IMG/VR virus record: IMGVR_UViG_3300031133_000402
DNA from: an uncultured virus (IMG/VR IMGVR_UViG_3300031133_000402)
Lineage: Duplodnaviria; Heunggongvirae; Uroviricota; Caudoviricetes
Length of the DNA: 64,000 bases
Reading direction: 5' to 3' (one strand)
The translations under genes were made by a program, and so were the position numbers. How positions within the stretch are numbered: the stretch's first letter is position 1; each line of letters starts with the position of its first letter. Below, piece after piece: positions 1 to 55,926 of the stretch. The notes under the pieces are model-generated. The model was not told where the DNA came from, did no database searches, and worked only from the letters and a program-made list of their open reading frames with translations.

Positions 1-717
1 CAGGATGTCGTTTCGCGACCCCTCGTGCGTGATGGGGATGAAGGCGAGATCGTAGCCCTGCTGGCAGTCGGTCTCGTTCATGAGACGCGTGTCCGCGCTC
101 TCGATCTGCCACCACAGGCCTTCGGACAGGGTCGGATCGACCTGGAACGTGCCCGACCACGACTTGTCGACGGTCTTGATGAACAGGTCGCCCGATCCGG
201 AGTCGTCGACGACCTTGCGCAATGCCGCCTCGATGCCGCGTTCACCCTCCACGTCGCCGTTCGCGAGCGCCATCGGCCGTCCGGCGTGATGCAGGAACGT
301 CTCGCTGGTGGCGTATCCGCTCGCGGCGCGCACGCTGCGCGCGTCGGACCCCACGACGTCCATTTCGAGCGGCACCGTCTTCATGAAGTCGTCGTTCGTC
401 CAGTGGCCGAACATCGCGCCGACGGGTGCGTCGGGACGCGAGGCCGGCACCATCCAGCCGCTGCCCGAGACGTGCACGCGGCCGCCGACCGGAAGCAGGG
501 TGAGATCCACGCCGAGCGTTTCCGCCGCATGGAGGATGGTCGCGTTCTCGATCCAGTCCTCCGGATCGGATCCTTCGGTCTCCTCCGTCGGCAGCGGGAA
601 GGGCCTGGAATCCGGAAACCGGCGCAGCCAGGTGTCGAGCAGCTCGGGCGCACGCGCCTCGATGCCGGCGGGATGCTTGTGGGTCGGATACGGCCGATAG
701 GCGTAGATGGCGCGCAT
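1..717 (-). CDS. Hypothetical protein, runs off the window edge; possibly ATP-grasp-like
   Basis: Hand-translated open frame from ATG 717 (MRAIYAYRPYPTHKHP...DLFIKTVDKSWSG...) with no stop before base 1; not in the ORF track. The fold guess is weak. Confidence 0.7.
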   Translation of the reverse strand, partial: MRAIYAYRPYPTHKHPAGIEARAPELLDTWLRRFPDSRPFPLPTEETEGSDPEDWIENATILHAAETLGVDLTLLPVGGRVHVSGSGWMVPASRPDAPVGAMFGHWTNDDFMKTVPLEMDVVGSDARSVRAASGYATSETFLHHAGRPMALANGDVEGERGIEAALRKVVDDSGSGDLFIKTVDKSWSGTFQVDPTLSEGLWWQIESADTRLMNETDCQQGYDLAFIPITHEGSRNDIL

Positions 718-738
718 GGTTTTCGGCTCCCAGGATTA

Positions 739-768
739 TCAGGTTGATGAGCCGGAGCTCCAACCTGA
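739..768 (-). repeat. Subterminal hairpin at the 3' end of element 1 (candidate omega/reRNA scaffold end)
   Basis: TCAGGTTG...CAACCTGA with inner GAGC-CGGA-GCTC stem. Confidence 0.6.
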
Positions 769-777
769 AGCCCTGGT

Positions 778-2349
778 CTACGCGACGTGTCCGATCTGAG
801 CGGCGGCCACCGTGAGGTGTCCGCTTTTCCTGGAACCCATTCGTCGCACCGCGTACCTCCTACCCGCATGGTCGAAGGGCCCGGGATCCATCGCCTGGAG
901 CGGTGGATGCGGGCGGCGCACGTCAATCTGCGCCGCTTTCACTGCCCGGTGGATCAACTTCCAGCATTCCGCCTGCGCCATGGCTTTCGCTATGATGTCC
1001 GGCGCCGCTCCATCCTTCCCTGGGAGGGGCTGCACCGTCCGCGGAACCACCGGAAGGCGGTCCTTGTCTCCACGCGACGCGGCGATGCCGCGGCGCGCGA
1101 TTTCCGCTGCGGCCGCACAGGCGTCCGGCAGGTCGAAGAGCATGTTGCCGATGGTGGTGGAGTAGCCACCCCATACGGCCGTGAGCTTTATGCCGCCAAG
1201 GGCGCAACGGCGGGCGAGGCCACCGATCAGCGCGGTCCGGCTCCAGAAGTTGATGGTCTGAGCGGCGGGCTCGCCGCGCGACTTCTTGGACCAGCGCAGC
1301 TTGCCGAGACCATCCTCGTGGAAGATGGTCTCGGCGTGCCACTTGCGGGCGAGGCCCGAGGCCATACGCGCGGCACGCGCCATGTGCGTGGCCAGAGCCT
1401 CCGAGGATGAGCCGATCGGTACGTCCATGCGGATCAGTCGGTGGTCGAGGATGCGGACTGCGTCCGCATCGCGCGCGTCTGAGCGGTGATCTATCTCGAT
1501 GACGGTCAGACCGATCCACTGAGGGTTGAGATCCACGCCGACTGCGCGCGACGTCATCGCCGGGATGGCTGGACGCCATTCCGGATGGACTGGGCGGATC
1601 GAATGGTCGACTGGCTTGATCTTGTATGCGGAATCATGCGTATCAGGGTCGTTGCGGGGCCTGCCTCGTGGCTTGTGACCCAGGGCCTCGCGTTCGGCCT
1701 TTTGAACCTGCTCCAGAGTCATGTCCGGCGGAAGTTTGCGCAGATCCATAGGATCGAAGGTGATGGTCACGCTCGAGGAGCCGAGCGTGAAGCCGATGCC
1801 GATCTCGCAGGCATTGGTCAGCATCGCGAGGGCTTTGACCAGATAGCCCGTCTTGCCGGACATCTGAGGCAGATTGAGTGTCACGGTCTTGCTGAGGAAC
1901 CCGACCGTTGCCTTGAGTCCGTCATGCGACAGTTTGAGATGTCGGTTTCCGTCGCGGGTGCGGTCTCCAACGATCTCGATGGGTCTGGACTGGCGGCGTC
2001 GCCTCCAGTCTTCCTGGCTGATGAGACCTTTTGCACGCCGTTCGAACTCGTTGCGTCCGCCGAAGACGATTTTCCCGTTTGGCTGCTGCTTGCGCATGCG
2101 CAGCGCTTCACGCGTGGCGCAGTGGATTGCCCATGACCCCAGCGGATGCTCTGGGAACAGCCTCTTCAGGAGGTTCCTGAGATCCTTCTCCGGCATGTGT
2201 CTGCCATCCGGCAGTCCCGAACGCGCATAACCTGTGCGCACGACGCATGCTTGAAGGCGCTGCCAATCCGCGATCAGCGTCTTGTCGTCGTCCGAAGCGA
2301 CATAGGGAATTGTGATCGTCTGCACGAGGAACGGATTAGCAACACTCAA
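778..2349 (-). CDS. tnpB: TnpB-like RNA-guided RuvC endonuclease (IS200/IS605/IS607 OrfB superfamily)
   Basis: RuvC-I AVGVDLNP, RuvC-II IFHEDGL, GYSTTIG, RuvC-III LPDACAAAAEIARRG; no CxxC zinc finger; true start may be GTG 2325 (VQTIT). Confidence 0.85.
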   Translation of the reverse strand: MSVANPFLVQTITIPYVASDDDKTLIADWQRLQACVVRTGYARSGLPDGRHMPEKDLRNLLKRLFPEHPLGSWAIHCATREALRMRKQQPNGKIVFGGRNEFERRAKGLISQEDWRRRRQSRPIEIVGDRTRDGNRHLKLSHDGLKATVGFLSKTVTLNLPQMSGKTGYLVKALAMLTNACEIGIGFTLGSSSVTITFDPMDLRKLPPDMTLEQVQKAEREALGHKPRGRPRNDPDTHDSAYKIKPVDHSIRPVHPEWRPAIPAMTSRAVGVDLNPQWIGLTVIEIDHRSDARDADAVRILDHRLIRMDVPIGSSSEALATHMARAARMASGLARKWHAETIFHEDGLGKLRWSKKSRGEPAAQTINFWSRTALIGGLARRCALGGIKLTAVWGGYSTTIGNMLFDLPDACAAAAEIARRGIAASRGDKDRLPVVPRTVQPLPGKDGAAPDIIAKAMAQAECWKLIHRAVKAAQIDVRRPHPPLQAMDPGPFDHAGRRYAVRRMGSRKSGHLTVAAAQIGHVA

Positions 2350-2361
2350 GCGTCTGGGGAA

Positions 2362-2403
2362 GGATTATCGGGTTGGAGACGGTCAGCTTCGACCCGATAA
2401 TCC
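2362..2403. repeat. Long subterminal hairpin at the 5' end of element 1
   Basis: GGATTATCGGGTTGGAG-N8-CTTCGACCCGATAATCC, a near-perfect palindrome. Confidence 0.75.
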
Positions 2404-2464
2404 GGAGAACCTGGTTTCCCCCTTGGTGTCGGTGTCGTGCATCCCGCCGAAGCGGAGGTGTGCG

Positions 2465-2623
2465 TCAGGCGGCCTTGGCGAGGACGATGGCGTCCCAGGC
2501 GCGGCATTCCTCGTCGTCGGCCATGGGGAGGATCGTGAGGACCGGGCTGCGCGTCTGCGAGCGGACGTCAGGCATGGGGACGACGTTGCCGCGCGGGGCG
2601 GGGATGCGACGTAGAGCCTTCAT
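2465..2623 (-). CDS. Small hypothetical protein (52 aa)
   Basis: AGAGGAAAAGAAC RBS, then MKALRRIP... Confidence 0.55.
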   Translation of the reverse strand: MKALRRIPAPRGNVVPMPDVRSQTRSPVLTILPMADDEECRAWDAIVLAKAA

Positions 2624-2652
2624 GTTCTTTTCCTCTTTGCCATGGGTAGCAT

Positions 2653-2892
2653 TCAATCCGCCTCGGTCGGATCCTCCTCCAGCAGCGCCATCAGATGCGC
2701 CAGCAGCGCGGCGTCGTCGTCCGGAAGCGATACCCAGCCCGCGGCGTAGCCGTCGGAGTGCAGACGCCAGGCGGCGTCGAGATCGGACCGCGGAGCCGTG
2801 TGGCCGTGCGCGGCCAGCACGCGCTCCATGCGGTCGACGTCGTCCGGGAAGGTCTCGCGGTGCGTCTCGCGCGCCAGGCGGTAGCGGGTCAT
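2653..2892 (-). CDS. Small hypothetical protein
   Basis: GGAG RBS; MTRYRLARE...WRLHSDGYAAGW. Confidence 0.65.
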   Translation of the reverse strand: MTRYRLARETHRETFPDDVDRMERVLAAHGHTAPRSDLDAAWRLHSDGYAAGWVSLPDDDAALLAHLMALLEEDPTEAD

Positions 2893-2920
2893 GGTCGGTC
2901 TCCTTGGAAGGCACGTCCTA

Positions 2921-7277: not shown

Positions 7278-7964
7278 TCATGAAAAATTGGTATTTTGCT
7301 TTTTTATATGAGCTGCAACGTAGCTCTTTATATATTTTTCATCGCCATTTGCAGGTATATCCGTGTAGCGGCGACCTCTGACAACATCATTAACGGTAGG
7401 ATACGAAACACCGAACATTCTTGCTATGTTCGTCCTGCTATAGCCTATTTTATATAACGCCTTAATTACGGAGACATCGTCTTCCGTGAATTTTGAGTAA
7501 CCGTTTTTAACTCCTGAAGCAGGATTTGTCAGACCGGTCTCATGGGCATGCTTCATGTTGCCAACGGATGTAAGAAGTTCGAGATTTTTTAAGCGGTAAT
7601 TTTGTTTGTTACCGTCAATGTGATTTACCTCGAGATTCAAAGGAATAACACCTTTGAAGTGAAGCCACATTAGACGGTGACATTGAATGTGACGAATGAC
7701 TCGACATTTTTTATCGAGCTTGCTCATCTTCGGGTATCCACCCGATCCTGTGGCCCATTGGCTGTGACCAGTGGAGACATGCGTTATTATACCGCACGCA
7801 GTGAGAGTTATTTCTCCTGAAGCTATGCAAGTCAGAAAAAATGATTCGGCTTCGGTTTTGCCGTGATTTACGATTGCGATGCTGGTGGGCCCGGCCGGAT
7901 TCGAACCGACAGCCTGGCTGTTATGGGCAGCTAGCTCTACCATTGAGCTACAGGCCCTGAGCAT
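7278..7964 (-). CDS. Free-standing HNH homing endonuclease with C-terminal HTH; start unresolved
   Basis: HRLMWLHFKG...EVNHIDGNKQNYRLKNLELLT..NMKHA; IARMFGVSYPTV HTH; AT-rich relative to flanks. Confidence 0.85.
   Translation of the reverse strand: MLRACSSMVELAAHNSQAVGSNPAGPTSIAIVNHGKTEAESFFLTCIASGEITLTACGIITHVSTGHSQWATGSGGYPKMSKLDKKCRVIRHIQCHRLMWLHFKGVIPLNLEVNHIDGNKQNYRLKNLELLTSVGNMKHAHETGLTNPASGVKNGYSKFTEDDVSVIKALYKIGYSRTNIARMFGVSYPTVNDVVRGRRYTDIPANGDEKYIKSYVAAHIKKQNTNFS
7883..7957 (-). tRNA. tRNA with CAU anticodon, most likely tRNA-Ile2
   Basis: GGGCCTGTAGCTCAATGGTAGAGC...CCCATAA...GTCGGTTCGAATCCGGCCGGGCCCACCA cloverleaf with encoded CCA. Confidence 0.88.
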
Positions 7965-23251: not shown

Positions 23252-23836
23252 TCACTCTCCGTTCCGGTATGCCTCGTGTCGGCACGTGACGATCTCGGTC
23301 ATCGTCGCATCCTCCCACAGCGGCCATGTCGCGCGGATCTGGAGATCGAACCGGTCGAGCACCGGGTGCGTCAGCAGATCGCGCAAGGGTCTGCCCACGG
23401 CGGCGGTCGTCAGGGTGTCCGGCACGCCGGAGAGCAGGATTTTGTCCTCGCGCCAGGTCATGCCCGGGCCGATGACGATCCACGTTGCATCCGCCATGTG
23501 CATGCCGATGTTGATCATGCGCGCATGGGACGATTCGATGGCGAAGGTGTGGTCCACCGTCGAAAGCGACAGGGCCAGCACGCCGTCCGGATCGAGACCC
23601 ATCGACGTCAGCAGTTCATCGAACAGCGGGGGAAGGCCGTGGCAGCCGTCGGCGTACGCCTCCAATACGACCTGGGCGACGCGCGCCCGGGTCGCGTCGT
23701 CGTCCAGCCCGTGCATGATGGTGGCGGCGGCCCGCATCGCGGCGTCGTGATCGGCGGCCGTGCCGAGAAGCGCCAGGCCCTTCTCGCACGAGATGAGTGA
23801 CGTCACGTCTTCGCGGTCCGGATGCATGTCGGTCAT
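23252..23836 (-). CDS. PET-GR-L paralog family member, short type
   Basis: GLDPDGVLAL; VPDTLTTAAVGRPLRDLLTHPVLD; ATGA coupled. Confidence 0.85.
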   Translation of the reverse strand: MTDMHPDREDVTSLISCEKGLALLGTAADHDAAMRAAATIMHGLDDDATRARVAQVVLEAYADGCHGLPPLFDELLTSMGLDPDGVLALSLSTVDHTFAIESSHARMINIGMHMADATWIVIGPGMTWREDKILLSGVPDTLTTAAVGRPLRDLLTHPVLDRFDLQIRATWPLWEDATMTEIVTCRHEAYRNGE

Positions 23837-24444
23837 GATGGCGCCTCCCCGGCTGGATGTGGTCGTCCGCGTGATACGTGGAGCTCGACCTGGTCGCCCG
23901 CCCCCGCGCGATTGCGGATGTCGTCGATGCGCAGACCCAAGGGGTCCAGCACCGGATGCGACAGGAAGCGGACGAGCGGCTCGCCTATCAGGGCGGCGCG
24001 CACGGTGTCCGGCATCGCCGCGGCCCTCACGTGTCCGGACGACCAGAACGTGTGCGGCGCGAGGCGCACGAACGAGTTGCCGAAGGACCCCGCCAGCTGC
24101 GCGAACTTGGCGACCACCCCGTCCGGCGTGCGACGTCTGACCACGATGTGGCGTCCGGGCGCGACCAGCGACAGCGCCAGCGCGGCATCCGCGTCCATGC
24201 CGTGATGAGCGAGGAGATCGGGCATGATCAGAGGGAGCCACGAATGGCTGCGTGCTATCGTCTCGGTGACCCTCGCGCGCATGACGTGATTGATGCGGCC
24301 GTTCAGCATGTCGGCGACGACGCGCGGAGCGTCATCGTGCTGCGTCCTGTCCAGGCCGAGCAGAGCGCGCCCTTCGCTATCGGCCTGGAGGATCAGAACG
24401 CGTGCGGCGTCGGGATCCAACGAGAAGACGGGTTCCTCGATCAT
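23833..24444 (-). CDS. PET-GR-L paralog family member, short type
   Basis: HGMDADAALAL; MPDTVRAALIGEPLVRFLSHPVLD. Confidence 0.85.
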   Translation of the reverse strand: MIEEPVFSLDPDAARVLILQADSEGRALLGLDRTQHDDAPRVVADMLNGRINHVMRARVTETIARSHSWLPLIMPDLLAHHGMDADAALALSLVAPGRHIVVRRRTPDGVVAKFAQLAGSFGNSFVRLAPHTFWSSGHVRAAAMPDTVRAALIGEPLVRFLSHPVLDPLGLRIDDIRNRAGAGDQVELHVSRGRPHPAGEAPS

Positions 24445-27744: not shown

Positions 27745-30933
<3,189 letters not shown>

Positions 30934-30949
<16 letters not shown>

Positions 30950-31338
30950 AGTCTGTCTATCCTGGTGGTGATGCGGGTGACGTCTTCCGGCGTCCCCATG
31001 ATTTCGAAGCGGTCGATCTCCGGCACGTCGCACTTGGCGGAGATGATCCGCCCGGCGTAGGCGAAGAAGCGACCGAAGTTGGTGTTGCCGCCGGCGACCA
31101 CGCCCCTGATCCAAGCCCGGTTCTCGGGGTCGTTCAGGAAGCGGATCACCTGCTTGGCCACCCCGCCGTTGCCGTCGTCGTCGCAGTAGGTGGGCAGCAC
31201 CAGGACGAAGGGACGGCGTACGGCGGGCATTTCGTCCTTGGGGCTGACCGGGATTCGGACGTTCTCGAACGGCAGCTTCATGACGAAGCGGTGCGTGTTC
31301 TCGGAAGCGCTCGACCAGTAGACGATCAGCCCGGACAT
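30934..31338 (-). CDS. nrdI: NrdI flavodoxin
   Basis: [29 protein letters not shown]. Confidence 0.95.
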
Positions 31339-39624: not shown

Positions 39625-40290
39625 TCAGTTGACGATGGTGATGTCCCTGAACGCCCAGGTCGTCCCCGGGCAGTTCGCCGCCCATGTCGGCACGGGCGCG
39701 GTCGGCACCCATGGTGCCGGTTCGAGATGAAGGGCGGTGTATCTCTCGTCGCGGTGCACCGTCCCGATGCGCAATGCGCGGCACGCCTCGGCGAGGTCGG
39801 CGCGCGCCGGCGGAAGCTCGATCAGCTGGTGCAGCGGCATGCCTTCCAGATCGCCTAGCGTCTCGGGCAGCGCGAACGGCACCTCGACGATCGTCGGCAT
39901 GTCGTGCACCGTGTCCACCCAGTACGCGATCTGCGACACGTCGCCGGCATCGATGCCCTTGCCCGCCTGCGGTCCCTGTTCGCAGGAGGCCTTCGGCATC
40001 GCGAGACCGTTCATGCAGGCGACGGCCGCCGACCAGGTGACGGTCGAACCGGCACTCGCGTCGCTGCGGTCGGAGAACGGGTCGCTCGACCACCATCCGC
40101 CGGGGGCGCGGTGCTCGAGGACCGCGAGCGCCAGCGGATGGCATATCCCCGTCCACAGCACGTCGACCATGCGCTTGCTGTGGACGGGGAGCGAGGGCCC
40201 CGGCGCGTTCGTGCGCCAGAGCGTCACCTCGCGCTGGCGAAGCGCCTCCCGTCTGAGAAGCGCATCCAGTCGACCCTCGTCGGCGCTCAC
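39625..40290 (-). CDS. PET-GR-L paralog family member, divergent
   Basis: GICHPLALAVL; LPETLGDLEGMPLHQLI...LEP; GTGA coupled. Confidence 0.7.
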   Translation of the reverse strand: MSADEGRLDALLRREALRQREVTLWRTNAPGPSLPVHSKRMVDVLWTGICHPLALAVLEHRAPGGWWSSDPFSDRSDASAGSTVTWSAAVACMNGLAMPKASCEQGPQAGKGIDAGDVSQIAYWVDTVHDMPTIVEVPFALPETLGDLEGMPLHQLIELPPARADLAEACRALRIGTVHRDERYTALHLEPAPWVPTAPVPTWAANCPGTTWAFRDITIVN

Positions 40291-40949
40291 GCCGCCTTCT
40301 TGTAGGCGCCCGACATGAACGCGCCGGCCACCACCTCGTCGAAGCGGTCGAGGATCGCCTGCATCAGGGGCTCGTGGCCCTCGATGGCGTAGTAGCGCGT
40401 GCACAGGTCGCCGTAGGGGTCGCCGTGGAAGTCGCCGTCGTCCTCCTCGTCGTCGCAGTAGCCGCGGTACGAGCCGCGCTTGGGAGCGCGCTCGCTCTCG
40501 CTGCGGTCCGCGAACGTCTGCACGATGGCCAGAACCTCGGCGGCGTCGGCGATGCCGACATCGGCCGCGCCCTTGAACAGGGCGATGACGGCCTCGACGG
40601 AGGCGGCGTACCCGTTGTCGAGGTACTGGCTGAATCCGCCATTGTTGACTTGGTAGTTGAAGTTGCCGAGAACCACCGCGGCGTTCACCTTGGGCGGCAT
40701 CACGGCCGCGATCTCCGCCTGGCGCGGATCGCGCATGAACACGTAGGTGTCGGTGTCGACGTCGAATGGGAAGTGGGTGATGTCGACGCCTGCGTCTTCG
40801 GCTGCCTTGCGCACCCTGTCGTTGTTCTGCGTCACCTGCGCGGACATCTGCTTCCAGTAGTCGTAGAACAGGTTCATCAGTGCCTGATGGTCGTTCGGCA
40901 GCGGGTTCGGCAGCGTCGGCTGCGTCAGGGGGACCGTGGTCAGTTCCAT
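40287..40949 (-). CDS. DUF4375/DMP19-like protein
   Basis: NYQVNNGGFSQYLDN; acidic tract; L.TRYY. Confidence 0.7.
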   Translation of the reverse strand: MELTTVPLTQPTLPNPLPNDHQALMNLFYDYWKQMSAQVTQNNDRVRKAAEDAGVDITHFPFDVDTDTYVFMRDPRQAEIAAVMPPKVNAAVVLGNFNYQVNNGGFSQYLDNGYAASVEAVIALFKGAADVGIADAAEVLAIVQTFADRSESERAPKRGSYRGYCDDEEDDGDFHGDPYGDLCTRYYAIEGHEPLMQAILDRFDEVVAGAFMSGAYKKAA

Positions 40950-40976
40950 GATGTTTTCGGCTATTCGGATTTGAGT

Positions 40977-41003
40977 GTGAAATCAGCTTGCGCTGATTTT
41001 CAC
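40977..41003 (-). repeat. Subterminal GCAA-tetraloop hairpin at the 3' end of element 2
   Basis: Minus strand GTGAAAATCAGC-GCAA-GCTGATTTCAC. Confidence 0.65.
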
Positions 41004-42596
41004 CTGGTCCGAACTATCTCGAACCGTTCTGGATATATGAACCGGGCGGGCCGAACAGCTCACTCCTTTTCCATTCCCAAGCCGATTCACTGCGTAACCT
41101 ATACCTCCGATTTGGAGTAGGTGCCCGGGTACCATGTCCGAGGACGATGGATGCAGCCGACGGTAGCCAATCGCCGTGGTCTTGCGACCACGGCGCTGCG
41201 CCGGTTTGATTGCCCGGTGGACCGCCTGCCAGGTATCCGCGCTCGCCAAGGTATCACCTAAGGCAGTGGGCAGCTTCTCATCCTTCCATCGGCGAGAAGC
41301 CACCTGCACTGGGACGACCGGCAGACGGTCCTTGATTCCGCACGTCGAGGCGTAGCCTCGTCGTGCGATCTCCGCTGCCGATGCGCATGCGTCGGGCAGG
41401 TCGAAGAGCATGTTGCCGATTGTGGTGGAATAGCCACCCCAGATCGACATGAACTTGATGTCTGCGAGCTTGCAGCGGCGGGTTAGACCACCGATCAGCG
41501 CGTTGCGCGACCAATAGTTGACCGTTTGATCATTGCCACGGGACTTTTTCGACCAGGCGAGCTTGCCGAGGCCGTCTTCATGGACGATCAACCCGCAGTT
41601 CCAGGCACGTGCCATATTGACAACCTGCCCGGCGACATTGGCCAAGGCGCTTGTCATATTCGCCGCATCAGCGGCAAACGGAATGGCGATGTAATGAAGT
41701 CGGTGATCGAGGATGCGGACGTTGTCCGCATCCTGTGGATTCCCTGTGGCTTCTATGATGCTGACGCCTACGTACTGCGGGTTGAGATCCAGACCGAGCG
41801 CGCGCGTAGTGACGACGGGCACGGCATCACGCCATTCAGGATGAACAGGACGCTCGTTAAGATGCTTTACCCGGTTGGCAGCGTAGTGAGTCGTGGGGTC
41901 CTTACGTTTGCGTCCCTTACGGGACGCACCCTGCTCGGCGATTTTGAGATCCTCGAGCGTCTTGCCTGGTGGCAATTTCCGCAGATCCATTTCGTCGAAC
42001 GTCACGTTTAGTGTCTTGGCCGTGATGCTGAAATGCAGTGACATTTGGCCTGCGTCTGCGAGCAGTGCCACGGCGCGCAGCAGCGCGCCGTGTTTGCCCA
42101 CCATTGTCCGTAGACGGATGGAGACGGCATGGCCAAGAAACTTGATATCGCAGGTCGATGCGTCCTGCGAAAGCGTGAAGTGCCTGTTGCCCTTCCTCGT
42201 GCGATCGCCGATGATTTCCAACGCCCGCCCGTGCCGTCGCTCCCGCCACTCGTCACTGGATATCAGACCCTTCTGCCGCCGCAGCAGTTCTGACTTCCCA
42301 CCGAAGACAATCTTGCCGCTCGGAACGCGCGCACGCAGGCTCTTGGCCTCGTAGGCCGCGCAATGCGCGGCCCAACTGCCAAGCGGTTGATCGGGATACC
42401 GATCCTTGATGACGTGCTCGATTTCCGCCGCTGAGCGATCCCCGCCACCTGCGTACCCCGTCCGAACCATTGTCGCCATGACGCGTTTCCACCCGGCTAT
42501 TACGCCGCATGTAACGTCATCGGCTGACCAGGAGACGGTGATTGTCTGCACTATTCTTTCTAACCTAGCTGGTTTGAGAACAAAAGGGCATTCCAC
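40983..42596 (-). CDS. tnpB: TnpB-like RNA-guided RuvC endonuclease, diverged homolog of 778-2349
   Basis: LGLDLNP, IVHEDGL, WGGYSTTIGNMLFDLPDAC.AAEIARRG; start probably at VQTIT. Confidence 0.85.
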   Translation of the reverse strand: MECPFVLKPARLERIVQTITVSWSADDVTCGVIAGWKRVMATMVRTGYAGGGDRSAAEIEHVIKDRYPDQPLGSWAAHCAAYEAKSLRARVPSGKIVFGGKSELLRRQKGLISSDEWRERRHGRALEIIGDRTRKGNRHFTLSQDASTCDIKFLGHAVSIRLRTMVGKHGALLRAVALLADAGQMSLHFSITAKTLNVTFDEMDLRKLPPGKTLEDLKIAEQGASRKGRKRKDPTTHYAANRVKHLNERPVHPEWRDAVPVVTTRALGLDLNPQYVGVSIIEATGNPQDADNVRILDHRLHYIAIPFAADAANMTSALANVAGQVVNMARAWNCGLIVHEDGLGKLAWSKKSRGNDQTVNYWSRNALIGGLTRRCKLADIKFMSIWGGYSTTIGNMLFDLPDACASAAEIARRGYASTCGIKDRLPVVPVQVASRRWKDEKLPTALGDTLASADTWQAVHRAIKPAQRRGRKTTAIGYRRLHPSSSDMVPGHLLQIGGIGYAVNRLGNGKGVSCSARPVHISRTVRDSSDQVKISAS

Positions 42597-42673
42597 ACTC
42601 CAATCCTAATAGCCATGTTTCCCTCAATGCTGTCATCTTCGAAGGGACTCCTCCCCGCAAGGCGGGAAGGCTT

Positions 42674-51984: not shown

Positions 51985-52683
51985 TCAGGCCGCCCTGCTC
52001 GCCCTGGGCGGGTAGTGCGCGTGGCGCGCCCGCTCGAGGTCCGCCGCGGTCAGCGCCCGCATGTCGACGTCGAGCATCAGCTGCGACGCGAAGCCGGGCT
52101 CGCCGACGCGCGCCTCGCGGATGACGATGTCGAAGGCGTTCAGCGCCGGATGGTCCACCAGGTCGCGCAGACGCCTGCCGGCGGAGGCGACGATCACCGT
52201 GTCGGGCACGTCGTGGATCAGAAGCGAGCCGTTCCCGTACCAGACCACCGGATCGGCTTCGTCCGTCAGCGCGATGCGCGTGGTGTTGAGCCCCGATCCC
52301 GTATGCTCGTCCACATCGATCTCTATCGTGTCGAGGAAGCGCCGCTTGATCGTTCTGACGTCGACCGACATCGCGAACCAGGCGGCCGCCAGCGGATCGA
52401 TCCCCGATTCCACCAGCAGAGCCGCCGTGACCGCGTCCAGGCACCCGACCTCGCATTGGTCGAAATTGCGCACCAGATGCTTGGCGCGCAGCAGCGGGAC
52501 GATGTCCTCGGCCTGCCTGGTCGACAGACCGCACAGCGCGACGTTGACGATGTTTATGGCGTCGCGTCTGTCCGCCAGTCCCGCCAGCCCGAACAGGGCG
52601 CTGTTCTGCGCGTCCGCGATGATCGCCTTGTGCGAGGCCGCATCCAGCTGCGAGTCCGTCCGCGTCTTGGCCCAGCTCTTCAC
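51985..52683 (-). CDS. PET-GR-L paralog family member, short type
   Basis: SGIDPLAAA; VPDTVIVASAGRRLRDLVDHPALN; GTGA coupled. Confidence 0.85.
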   Translation of the reverse strand: MKSWAKTRTDSQLDAASHKAIIADAQNSALFGLAGLADRRDAINIVNVALCGLSTRQAEDIVPLLRAKHLVRNFDQCEVGCLDAVTAALLVESGIDPLAAAWFAMSVDVRTIKRRFLDTIEIDVDEHTGSGLNTTRIALTDEADPVVWYGNGSLLIHDVPDTVIVASAGRRLRDLVDHPALNAFDIVIREARVGEPGFASQLMLDVDMRALTAADLERARHAHYPPRASRAA

Positions 52684-54617: not shown

Positions 54618-55259
54618 TCACGCCGGGCGTGACGCCCTCGTCAGAGCTGCGAGCTGGTCGTCGTCCAGATGCGGTCCGGCACCCGACACGAGCAGCGTCG
54701 TGTGCGCCTCCGATGTCTCCTCGAGGTCCGCGACGCCCACCACGACCAGTGGCATCGCGTCGAGCACGGGATGCGCGACGAGGTCGCGCAGACGGCGGCC
54801 GCTGCATCCGGCCACCACCGTGTCGGGCAGCCTGGGCATCTGGATCAGCGTCTGCCGTCCCGTGACGACGCTCAGGTCTCCGTCGTGGATCGTGTGCACC
54901 ATCGCATCCGGCAGCAGGAGCACCACGCGATCGCCGTCCGCATCGGTCATGCCGATGCCGCGCGCGGCCTTGGCGATGCGCGCTATGCGCAGGGGATCGA
55001 CGCCGTGCCGCAGCAGCATGCGCGCGGTCAGTTCGTCGATCTCGAGACGCGGGCCGTCCGGCATTGTCTCGTGCCCCAGCAGCATGCGCCGGCAGATCTC
55101 GGCGACCATGGGCGTCTCTATCTCGGAGTGATGGTCGTCCTTGTATCGCCTGATCTTGTCGGCGGGGATGAAACGGGCGAGACCGAGCCCATCGTCGTTG
55201 GATGCGAACGCCTTGAACACGAGGCGCTCGACGTCGTCGTACTCCAGCCAGAGATCCAT
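54618..55259 (-). CDS. PET-GR-L paralog family member, short type
   Basis: HGVDPLRIA; LPDTVVAGCSGRRLRDLVAHPVLD. Confidence 0.85.
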   Translation of the reverse strand: MDLWLEYDDVERLVFKAFASNDDGLGLARFIPADKIRRYKDDHHSEIETPMVAEICRRMLLGHETMPDGPRLEIDELTARMLLRHGVDPLRIARIAKAARGIGMTDADGDRVVLLLPDAMVHTIHDGDLSVVTGRQTLIQMPRLPDTVVAGCSGRRLRDLVAHPVLDAMPLVVVGVADLEETSEAHTTLLVSGAGPHLDDDQLAALTRASRPA

Positions 55260-55269
55260 GCGCGTTCCT

Positions 55270-55926
55270 TCAGGTCGTGGGGGCGAGCGCTTCGAGGGCC
55301 TCGCGGGTCAGCGCGACGTCTCGGGTATCGAGGACGACGCCGATGTTGAGCATGTCGCCGAACTCGTCCGGCTCGGCGGTGGCGATCCTGACGTCGAGGC
55401 GGTCCATGGCGGGATGCGACACGACGTCGCGCAGGCGCCTGCCGATCATCGCGGCGAGGACGGAGGCGGGCGTGTTCCTGTGCTCGGCCCCCTCCAGCCG
55501 GATCGACGCGATGTCCATCTCCGTCCAGGAGAACCCCTCCGCGTAGACGCTGCACACGGCGAGGTCGCGGTGCGTCATTATCCGCATGTCGTCGCCGCGC
55601 ACCAGCGTCATGATGTCGATCATGCTCCCGAGCGCCGCCACGGCGACCGGATGCACGCCCTGATGCGCGATCAGTCGCGCGGCGACGGCGTTCATCGGCA
55701 TCATCGCGTGTCCGGCGGGCACCGCGATGCGGCCGTCGAGCAGCTTTCGCGTGAACGCCTGCAGATCGTCCTCGACGGACAGCGTGACGTCGCACGGCGG
55801 GGTGTTCGCCGCGAAGCCGATCGTGTCGCCGCCCGGCGAACGCACCACCTCGACGAGCTTCGCCGTCGAGAAGTCGCTGACCTCCACCGATCTGGGGCGG
55901 ACGGGCTGTCCATGCCGTGTGCTCAT
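55270..55926 (-). CDS. PET-GR-L paralog family member, short type
   Basis: QGVHPVAVAAL; PASVLAAMIGRRLRDVVSHPAMD. Confidence 0.85.
   Translation of the reverse strand: MSTRHGQPVRPRSVEVSDFSTAKLVEVVRSPGGDTIGFAANTPPCDVTLSVEDDLQAFTRKLLDGRIAVPAGHAMMPMNAVAARLIAHQGVHPVAVAALGSMIDIMTLVRGDDMRIMTHRDLAVCSVYAEGFSWTEMDIASIRLEGAEHRNTPASVLAAMIGRRLRDVVSHPAMDRLDVRIATAEPDEFGDMLNIGVVLDTRDVALTREALEALAPTT

Follow-up and report, generated by a model that had tools for sequence, protein, structure and literature searches.

TnpB, the ancestor of the Cas12 nucleases, has one known job: the protection of IS200/IS605 and IS607 insertion sequences, elements that leave a scarless donor site. As described in PMC13565253 and PMC6188088, both groups lack inverted repeats and target duplications. 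Elements in which tnpB stands alone, with inverted ends and a duplicated target, have been published before. Solo TnpBs found inside the same inverted ends as TnpBs linked to DDE transposases are presumed, in the part of PMC10691335 that treats them, to be moved in trans, and for Fanzor1-only elements with terminal inverted repeats (TIR) and a target-site duplication (TSD), the section of PMC10711439 on guide RNA describes TIR and TSD as forming part of the scaffold. Here, two elements, copy 1 and copy 2, are described in a 64,000-nucleotide stretch of the uncultured Caudoviricetes record IMGVR_UViG_3300031133_000402 (the window). Both are compact single-gene insertion sequences and probably each the TnpB-only cassette of a TIR/TSD transposon. 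They represent an alphaproteobacterial clade whose transposons are classical in having inverted ends and a duplicated target but contain nothing other than a TnpB-like gene.

Copy 1 occupies 1,687 bp on the minus strand of the window (725-2411) and holds a single open reading frame (ORF). Its terminal inverted repeats match at 18 of 23 positions, the same count as in the first-pass annotation of this DNA, and at 19/26 when 26 nt are compared; the same ends recur across the family described below. Read along the minus strand, the left flank ...CCAAGGGGGAAACCA abuts the element start GGTTCTCCGGATTATCGGGTCGA... at window position 2411, and at the right junction the element sequence ...CAACCTGATAATCCTGGGAGCC ends at 725 and is followed by the flank GAAAACCATGCGC, with the ATG of the host gene at 717-715. 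The 6-bp repeat AAACCA, which the first-pass annotation took for the duplication, is present at both junctions, but the register shared by the family gives 8 bp of the form GAA[A]NNNN, with 7/8 positions identical at this site (GGAAACCA on the left, GAAAACCA on the right). The longest open frame of the element begins at TTG 2349, and this 523-aa form is used for residue numbering. The ORF points the same way as the host gene, stopping 53 nt short of it, and the right inverted repeat supplies a GGGAG 9 nt before the host ATG. Because of this GGGAG and the shared orientation, the host gene, judged from its sequence, may still be expressed; its product has no Pfam, NCBIfam or PHROG match. The features of copy 1 and its junctions are as follows.

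1-717, minus strand: downstream host ORF of at least 239 aa that runs off the window; ATG at 715-717; G+C content at third codon positions (GC3) 0.88, typical of host genes.
717-724, minus strand: right copy of the 8-bp duplication, GAAAACCA, present once in the empty site; it overlaps the host gene by one base, its final A being the first base of the ATG.
725-750, minus strand: right terminal inverted repeat (...CATCAACCTGATAATCCTGGGAGCC), matching the left end at 19/26 positions.
730-776, minus strand: nested stem-loop in which both parts of the right repeat are the 3' arms (-30.2 kcal/mol, z -2.7); candidate end of an omegaRNA scaffold, or a DNA hairpin.
778-2325, minus strand: ORF for the RuvC protein of TnpB/Cas12 fold, 515 aa from GTG 2325 (VQTITIPY...), a start as in the homologues; stop at 778-780.
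2362-2403, minus strand: left-end hairpin GGATTATCGGGT...ACCCGATAATCC with a 12-bp stem, seen only in the subclade of loci L025 and L026.
2386-2411, minus strand: left terminal inverted repeat (GGTTCTCCGGATTATCGGGTCGAAGC), from the comparison of ends.
2412-2419, minus strand: left copy of the duplication, GGAAACCA, identical at 7/8 positions; position 2 is G instead of A.
2418-2422, minus strand: GGGGG, the Shine-Dalgarno (SD)-like run of the interrupted host gene, which the element now parts from its ATG; the two are 6 nt apart in the empty site GGGGGAAAACCATG.

The unoccupied form of this site was found in public data. Four public runs were aligned to window positions 300-2900; the runs that contain the region are phyllosphere metagenomes and some isolates. 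A 10,845-bp contig of isolate X12 is colinear with both flanks and joins position 720 to 2415, skipping 1,694 bp; 12 differences were counted in 907 aligned bases. The joint is 723 to 2419 in contigs of X8, a DNA run, and of X3, an RNA library in which the occupied form is found as well. The empty site (GGGGGAAAACCATGCGC...) reads GGGGGAAAACCATG in X12 and GGGGAAAACCATG in X3 and X8: one copy of GAAAACCA and an SD-like run of G residues 6 nt from the ATG. Since the flanks are joined there, copy 1 sits between the SD run and the ATG, and the insertion between ribosome-binding site and start codon that had been proposed from the occupied sequence is shown directly. The breakpoints are those of the predicted empty allele GGGGGAAACCATGCGC, although the alleles found are one A longer. 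Among the empty alleles, the G/A run varies, with G5A4 and G4A4 forms.

Relatives of the copy 1 protein are widespread in Alphaproteobacteria. A word-indexed search gave 103 clusters at 90% identity, and at 50% identity 468 representatives have E ≤ 0.001, with 191 at E ≤ 1e-10. The named hosts are Methylobacterium, Methylorubrum, Bradyrhizobium, Neorhizobium and Acetobacter, with Rhizobium and Mesorhizobium among the genome loci. Distant members of about 430-480 aa, encoded in low-GC sequence, carry the same motifs. In a crude search of six loci of distant viral relatives (20-31% identity), no inverted ends were found above the chance level of AT-rich sequence, and a scan for close relatives with P0147 found nothing. 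For the comparison of ends, 24 genome loci and 57 metagenome loci were collected, 47 loci were examined and candidate ends were found on both sides in 39; removal of duplicates (L028, L035, L050) and of loci with a doubtful left end (L012, L029, L031, L032, L037, L046, L049) left 29. These elements are 1,433-1,908 bp long, each is filled by one ORF, and they share a conserved end pair of about 26 bp, GGCTATTCGGATTTnnGTGTGGAA ... TTCCACACnnAAATCCGAATAGCC. The stop codon is a TAG within the right inverted repeat in 14 of the 29 (e.g., L002, L005, L009, L014, L036, L039). That TAG lies in ...GAATAGCC, two bases before the boundary, and the C-terminal residues of these proteins (…KSG, …KSE) are translated repeat.

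The 8-bp duplication was evaluated against 812 mismatched pairs, in which the left flank of one locus was set against the right flank of another. The flanking octamers are identical at 8/8 positions in 16/29 loci (control, 2/812) and at 7/8 or more in 20/29 (control, 15/812), and the five variable positions alone are identical at 5/5 in 19/29 (control, 3/812). When the register is shifted by 1-3 nt, at most one of the 29 loci reaches 7/8. The repeat at copy 1 is thus not a chance match, since the same ends and the same duplication register recur in its relatives. The duplicated octamer has the form GAA(A)NNNN, in which the opening three bases, GAA or AAA, hardly vary. Where these bases deviate, they agree on both sides of the element: AATCTATT in L011, AATAGTTC in L044 and GATAACTA in L058. 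Because the first three bases vary and still agree, all 8 bp are duplicated target. There are four clean cases of mismatch in these bases (L034, L063, and the two window copies themselves, L025 and L033, which lie on a metagenome contig of 329 kb), and in each the copy at the right end keeps GAA and the left copy departs from it. In both window copies, the left duplication differs at the same position (GGAAAC... vs GAAAAC...; 2412-2419 and 42615-42622). Retention of GAA on the right could reflect selection on the triplet beside the right end, or chance.

Recent movement is seen in Acetobacter persici TMW2.1084, whose element end reads GGCTCTCCTGCAAACGG. The complete 526-kb plasmid pAC1084_1 (NZ_CP014688.1) carries five full copies of 1,656-1,660 bp that are 97-100% identical, together with internally deleted copies of 1,476, 842 and 298 bp. 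All eight pAC1084_1 elements that have both ends are flanked by perfect 8-bp duplications (AAANNNNN), preceded by G in 7/8 cases and by A in the 298-bp derivative (L109). The plasmid also holds a fusion of left and right ends of about 45 bp with a 7/8 duplication, AAACAATT / AAACAACT (L115 4040-4083; about 154840-154882). On NZ_CP014688.1, the fusion supplies the final codons of a gene annotated as encoding a hypothetical protein of 618 aa. A 706-bp derivative with the duplication GGAAAATG occurs in Bradyrhizobium tropiciagri. Based on the empty allele, the burst of near-identical copies and the miniature derivatives, these elements are demonstrably mobile. In individual genomes, credible ends cluster on single contigs (G003, 8/8 on the 458-kb contig C18; G001, 4/5 on C38; G002, 3/3 on C13), which suggests local hopping, or a plasmid or island as home.

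The protein encoded by copy 1 is recognizable by fold. It matches no Pfam family at E ≤ 0.1, no NCBIfam at E ≤ 1 and no PHROG, and the OrfB_IS605, Cas12f1-like_TNB and HTH_OrfB_IS605 profiles do not match it. A search of PDB sequences with the protein gave nothing usable; a family profile of 32 members reached only TnpB at E = 0.18 and Cas12X, around the RuvC-II motif, and among 17 distant relatives a single one matches PF07282, at E = 9e-4, which falls short of the family cut-off. The AlphaFold model (predicted local distance difference test score, pLDDT, 82.6; predicted template modelling score, pTM, 0.78) retrieves Cas12f, Cas12k, TnpB and Fanzor2 with Foldseek at E = 2e-8 to 1e-3. VIA-align Z scores are 15.8 for Cas12k (345 residues aligned), 15.7 for Cas12f and 14.7 for ISDra2 TnpB (279/341 residues, model range 8-426), and the match to Cas12k, Cas12f and TnpB spans residues 8-430. 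As modelled, the protein is a member of the TnpB/Cas12 (OMEGA) superfamily with a WED-REC-RuvC architecture; the label TnpB in the first-pass annotation is therefore right for fold and superfamily (Foldseek, VIA-align) but finds no match among sequence-family profiles. The RuvC D-E-D triad is present: D273 (DLNP) and D409 (PDAC; LPDACAxAAEIARRG) are invariant, and E345 (EDGLGKL) is found in at least 90% of the 32 sequences. The C4 zinc finger (TNB) between RuvC-II and RuvC-III is missing, the corresponding stretch being YSTTIGNMLFDLPD, with no CxxC pairs; the distant members of the family also lack it. A zinc finger is likewise missing in some large TnpB branches, as described in the relevant part of PMC10691335. 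Past RuvC-III, a C-terminal tail of about 90 residues has invariant W, H, K, RR-H and AV positions and is absent from TnpB; folded alone, it gives a pLDDT of 60 and a pTM of 0.35. Two other identities were rejected. An IS110/IS1111 identity is excluded by the lack of a Pfam DEDD_Tnp_IS110 or Transposase_20 match, the Cas12/TnpB top structures and the 8-bp duplication, and an IS6/IS1595/ISL3 identity by the TnpB fold of the only ORF, which has no Pfam DDE match.

The position of copy 1 between SD run and start codon recurs near it in the family. The start codon (ATG) of an ORF 40 or more codons long lies 5-10 nt past the right end in 12 of 31 loci, compared with 551 of 12,561 random flank positions (4.4%) and 39 of 983 GAAA sites (4.0%). 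Eight of the 12 belong to the clade closest to the window, which has ten loci (L025-L034, L061), and in 7 of those 8 an SD-like motif stands just left of the duplication. Outside this clade, 4/21 loci are at an ATG, of which L003 and L058 look like gene starts; the ATGs at L004 and at L009, an insertion within another tnpB gene, probably do not mark one. The tnpB gene interrupted at L009 (2353-2949 and flanks, Bradyrhizobium tropiciagri) is a canonical IS605-type gene (HTH_OrfB_IS605, E = 3.5e-13). Targeting of translation-initiation regions, as claimed in the first-pass annotation, thus holds for the window's clade (12/31 loci in all against about 4%) but does not extend to the more distant rhizobial relatives, which have few insertions at start codons. 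The simplest cause is that the recognized feature is a short purine-rich motif (RGGAAAA) that resembles an SD sequence and its spacer; the SD-to-ATG position would then follow from this motif and from better survival of insertions that break no coding sequence. For annotation, the consequence is that an element of this kind splits a ribosome-binding site from its start codon, is co-oriented with the gene and leaves no ORF broken.

Copy 2 lies on the same strand (40959-42614), encodes a protein 48% identical to that of copy 1 and also precedes a host ATG (GAGGGAAACAT|element|GAAAACATCATG). Its features are as follows.

40951-40958, minus strand: right copy of the duplication, GAAAACAT; the host ATG comes one base later (40947-40949) and opens a DMP19-like gene.
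40959-42614, minus strand: copy 2 element, 1,656 bp; repeats match at 22/26 positions; ORF from GTG 42551 (the homologue start) to the stop at 40983-40985.
42615-42622, minus strand: left copy of the duplication, GGAAACAT, identical at 7/8 positions with the same position-2 difference as in copy 1; GAGG precedes it.

The gene behind copy 2 (40287-40949, minus strand) is DMP19-like (PF14300, E = 2.7e-9), from a family of DNA-mimic proteins.

Together, the inverted ends and the 8-bp duplication indicate a staggered-cut reaction on double-stranded DNA and rule out the mechanisms of the single-tyrosine (Y1) transposase of IS200/IS605 and of the serine recombinase of IS607. Integration would involve cuts 8 bp apart, of the cut-and-paste or copy-and-paste type, rather than single-strand peel-and-paste. 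The enzyme that joins the ends may be a transposase encoded elsewhere in the cell and acting in trans, a proposal to which slightly less than an even chance is assigned; that the RuvC protein itself is the mover is rated second and less likely, and the remainder falls to other or mixed schemes. These estimates come from the strong prior expectation that proteins of TnpB fold are nucleases, weighed against the consistent absence of a partner. The RuvC protein would act as an RNA-guided nuclease. Its partner would be an RNA ending in the right-end hairpin and continuing into the duplicated target and the opening codons of the host gene. By cutting sites still free of the element, the nuclease would preserve or propagate the insertion, which is the role documented for TnpB and for Fanzor1 elements whose ends are inverted.

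The right end offers a candidate for this RNA. Its last 50-60 nt or so fold as a nested stem-loop in which an inner part of the repeat, TTCCACAC, and an outer part, ATCCGAAT, pair with upstream complements, with 4-7 unpaired bases (TAGCC) between hairpin and boundary; the nested form was obtained in 11/14 folds. By eye, the arms change together between clades: TTCGGA/TCCGAA, CCAGGG/CCTGGG (copy 1), AACCGATT/AATCCGGTT, CCGTAA/TTACGG and CCTTGC/GCAGG (Acetobacter). This hairpin matches the scaffold arrangement given for Fanzor1 in the guide-RNA section of PMC10711439. The right end is a candidate omegaRNA scaffold; the same picture would be given by a hairpin in the DNA, or by binding sites for a protein that occur in repeat.

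Several results weigh against this combination of movement in trans and an RNA-guided nuclease. On the side of the RNA, fold z-scores are modest (-0.3 to -3.8), and no Rfam family was found, the eight loci searched giving two sub-threshold, chance-like matches. RNAalifold predicted no pairs on a MAFFT alignment in which the 5' arms are misaligned. Out of 8 positions, complementarity to a locus's own arm and to the arms of other loci was 6.61 vs 6.12 for the outer stem and 6.0 vs 5.47 for the inner stem, with an unalignable loop region, and pair counts over nine sequences were no higher than in shuffled alignments, of which 45 to 372 in 500 gave counts at least as large. The protein also lacks the zinc-finger domain of most TnpBs. 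On the side of the mechanism, TnpB homing uses a scarless site, which excision of the DDE type would not produce. On the side of the partner, the 144 flanking ORFs of 27 loci contain no recurrent neighbour, no recurrent transposase and no Y1_Tnp or resolvase, in a scan that leaves out 75 ORFs of 11 further loci; a DDE gene is absent beside all 27. A transposase or recombinase bracketed by the element's ends, which the first-pass annotation proposed to look for, was not found in five draft genomes and one plasmid. In the five drafts, the 23-nt end pattern had 26 matches compared with 2 for the reversed control; all paired matches bracket elements of 1.54-1.65 kb or the 706-bp derivative, and the other credible ones are solo or truncated ends. 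Solo matches to a 13-mer of the end beside ordinary genes were set aside as remnants or chance.

The insertion sequences IS6, IS1595 and ISL3, which encode DDE transposases, have inverted repeats that start with GG and make 8-bp duplications, were considered as partners in these hosts and rejected, being mostly absent or having resident ends that are unlike those of the element. An ISL3 transposase occurs in none of the five host genomes. An IS6 transposase occurs in one, with the dissimilar end GGGCGTGTCGCAAAG, and an IS1595 transposase in two, with no end within 3 mismatches of the 13-mer; neither is on the Acetobacter plasmid. Mobilization in trans, which the first-pass annotation had inferred, is thus unproven and without positive support.

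A second reading is that the element is autonomous: the RuvC protein, alone or with the right-end RNA, would recognize both ends and make the insertion with its 8-bp stagger. This is given a minority share of the probability, at about three chances in ten, and the stronger form, in which the RuvC protein is the transposase of a new insertion-sequence family, perhaps helped by RNA, is judged less probable still, at one in four. In favour of autonomy, the element has one ORF and nothing else, and the divergence of its ends parallels that of its protein between Acetobacter (GGCTCTCCTGCAAACGGGGTTGATG) and Rhizobiales (GGCTATTCGGATTTnnGTGTGGAA), the ends having remained inverted repeats. The recent burst with its derivatives took place on a plasmid that has no IS6 or IS1595 transposase, and the ends are common to no other element class in the five genomes. 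The catalytic triad is conserved, as is the C-terminal extension that TnpB lacks. RuvC has an RNase H-like fold, as do DDE transposases and IS110 recombinases, which also counts for autonomy. As read from the sequence, an RNA that carries the right repeat would complement one strand of each end; in self-transposition, this RNA would guide the same RuvC site to both termini, and a contact with GAA(A), resembling a target-adjacent motif (TAM), would pick the target and set the 8-bp stagger. Against autonomy, strand transfer has to our knowledge been shown for no TnpB or Cas12, and an 8-bp duplication needs two coordinated active sites. In addition, the five genomes are drafts and the Acetobacter persici search covered plasmid pAC1084_1 only, so a partner may be elsewhere. 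TnpB is dispensable for transposition in IS608 and ISDra2, as stated in the portion of the review PMC13565253 that concerns them, and the published solo TnpBs with inverted ends have transposase-bearing relatives in the account of PMC10691335. Were the RuvC protein the transposase, it would be a functional bridge between RNA-guided nucleases and transposases and would explain the absence of a partner beside the elements.

Site-specific recombination by a tyrosine, serine or IS110-like enzyme, in which a circle with inverted arms around an 8-bp core inserts and the flanking repeats are the shared core, is very improbable. The abutted ends would resemble such a core site, two inverted arms with an 8-bp spacer, the first three bases of the octamer are nearly constant, and L025, L033, L034 and L063 keep GAA beside the right end where the two copies differ. 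However, the five core bases differ at every near-identical insertion on the Acetobacter plasmid, which makes a carried core impossible; no recombinase was found among the 82 window ORFs or 144 flanking ORFs, and the protein has no Pfam IS110 or Transposase_20 match and a Cas12/TnpB fold. Least probable of all, and refuted by the duplications and the empty site, is the IS200/IS605-type (IS1341-like) reading kept as a caveat in the first-pass annotation, in which a Y1 TnpA in trans would insert single-stranded DNA 3' of a GGGAAAC-like motif with no duplication and the repeats would be subterminal hairpins: the right-end hairpins in all clades, the left-end hairpin of the L025/L026 subclade, a right end that finishes in GCCGAAA(A), like the target motif, and a TnpB-like gene fit it, but the five variable bases are duplicated in 19/29 loci (control, 3/812) and in 8/8 Acetobacter copies, the empty site holds a single copy, most left ends have no hairpin and only inverted terminal sequence, and no Y1 transposase is found among 82 window ORFs or 144 flanking ORFs.

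The same 82 candidate window ORFs (24 + 58) contain no Y1 TnpA, no serine TnpA and no other Pfam transposase or recombinase, in line with the first-pass annotation, which had noted the absence of both TnpA types. The elements differ in composition from their surroundings: GC is 0.63 and 0.59 compared with 0.67 for the window, and GC3 is 0.76 and 0.67 compared with 0.88-0.93 for host genes, as expected for incomers. By GC3, 61 of 67 likely genes in the 64-kb window lie on the minus strand. Only 8 of the 82 scanned ORFs have Pfam matches, and most large ORFs also lack a PHROG match. The Pfam-matched genes include the large (28796-31114) and small (27748-28725) subunits of a class I ribonucleotide reductase and an HNH endonuclease (HNH_3, 7281-7964), and other matches are to DUF2201_N, Metallophos, DUF3841 and HAD_SAK_2. 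The element relatives L030 and L034 sit in arrays with DUF3841, HAD_SAK_2 and ART-PolyVal genes. In overall character, the replicon resembles a giant phage, or else a megaplasmid rich in ORFans, from an alphaproteobacterium of the phyllosphere. A family of 73-nt direct repeats with 60-75% identity (23352-23424, 23942-24014, 52136-52208, 54757-54829 and 55400-55472) probably corresponds to a coding motif conserved among paralogous genes of this replicon.

In a search of the literature on TnpB with TIR/TSD, DDE transposases, IS1341 and RNA-guided transposition, no description of the present family was found. New here is a TnpB-like family without a zinc finger that lies outside Pfam, NCBIfam and the PHROGs and has its own deeply conserved ends, the branches of the 2023 TnpB tree having been compared by description. 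Also new are the GAA(A) target with its SD-ATG habit, the direct evidence of mobility and the repeated failure to find a partner. If a transposase does act in trans, it is a well-hidden enzyme and the family is the prokaryotic counterpart of Fanzor1 cassettes; if none does, a protein of TnpB fold catalyses transposition. For tests of either idea, the family offers a compact protein system (about 515 aa, no zinc finger).

Among known systems, the best structural match is to Cas12k of type V-K CRISPR-associated transposons, which is TnpB-derived and works within a transposon. Cas12k, whose RuvC site is dead, acts alongside TnsB, TnsC, TniQ and a CRISPR array; in the present protein, by contrast, the triad is intact, and neither Tn7-like genes nor an array are present. 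IS6, IS1595 and ISL3 share with the element an 8-bp duplication, inverted repeats beginning with GG(C/T)T and a similar size. Unlike them, the element has no DDE gene, and resident IS6 and IS1595 ends are unlike its own in two host genomes. The IS200/IS605 elements, including the IS1341 group, are alike in having a single tnpB-like gene, a small size, a right-end hairpin and several diverged copies per replicon; as characterized in the passages of PMC13565253 on their ends, they have no inverted terminal repeats and no target duplication, whereas the present family has both. Membership in IS607 is excluded by the inverted repeats and duplication and by the lack of a resolvase match among the 82 window and 144 flanking ORFs.

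In its workings, the element resembles a solo-TnpB cassette, either DDE-linked or of the Fanzor1 type. The former are the DDE-1 to DDE-6 TnpB branches and the solo TnpBs of Altae-Tran et al. 2023 (PMC10691335), in which, in the sections that cover them, a prokaryotic TnpB likewise lies between inverted repeats. In the DDE-linked TnpBs of that work, again as the corresponding part describes them, the 3' end of the gene is within 250 bp of the transposon end, as here, and solo copies are presumed to be moved in trans. The present family differs in having no DDE gene beside the 27 loci, a comparison made by description and with part of the family sampled, and six accessions of its members do not occur in the available portion of the appendix text of PMC10691335.

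The latter are the Fanzor1-only transposons of eukaryotes and their viruses, such as the Spodoptera frugiperda ascovirus element, in which, according to the relevant parts of PMC10711439 and of Bao & Jurka 2013 (PMC3627910), a TnpB-family nuclease stands alone between TIRs with a short TSD. There, in the description given in PMC10711439 for these elements, the transposase is likewise elsewhere or not identified and the right repeat lies inside the predicted guide-RNA scaffold. The present element differs in being bacterial and in its GAA(A)NNNN target with a bias toward SD-ATG positions. Its protein is no Fanzor, as it lacks the zinc finger and has E345 at the usual TnpB place and another C-terminal tail. 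On our reading of these likenesses, the family appears to be the bacterial counterpart of Fanzor1 elements.

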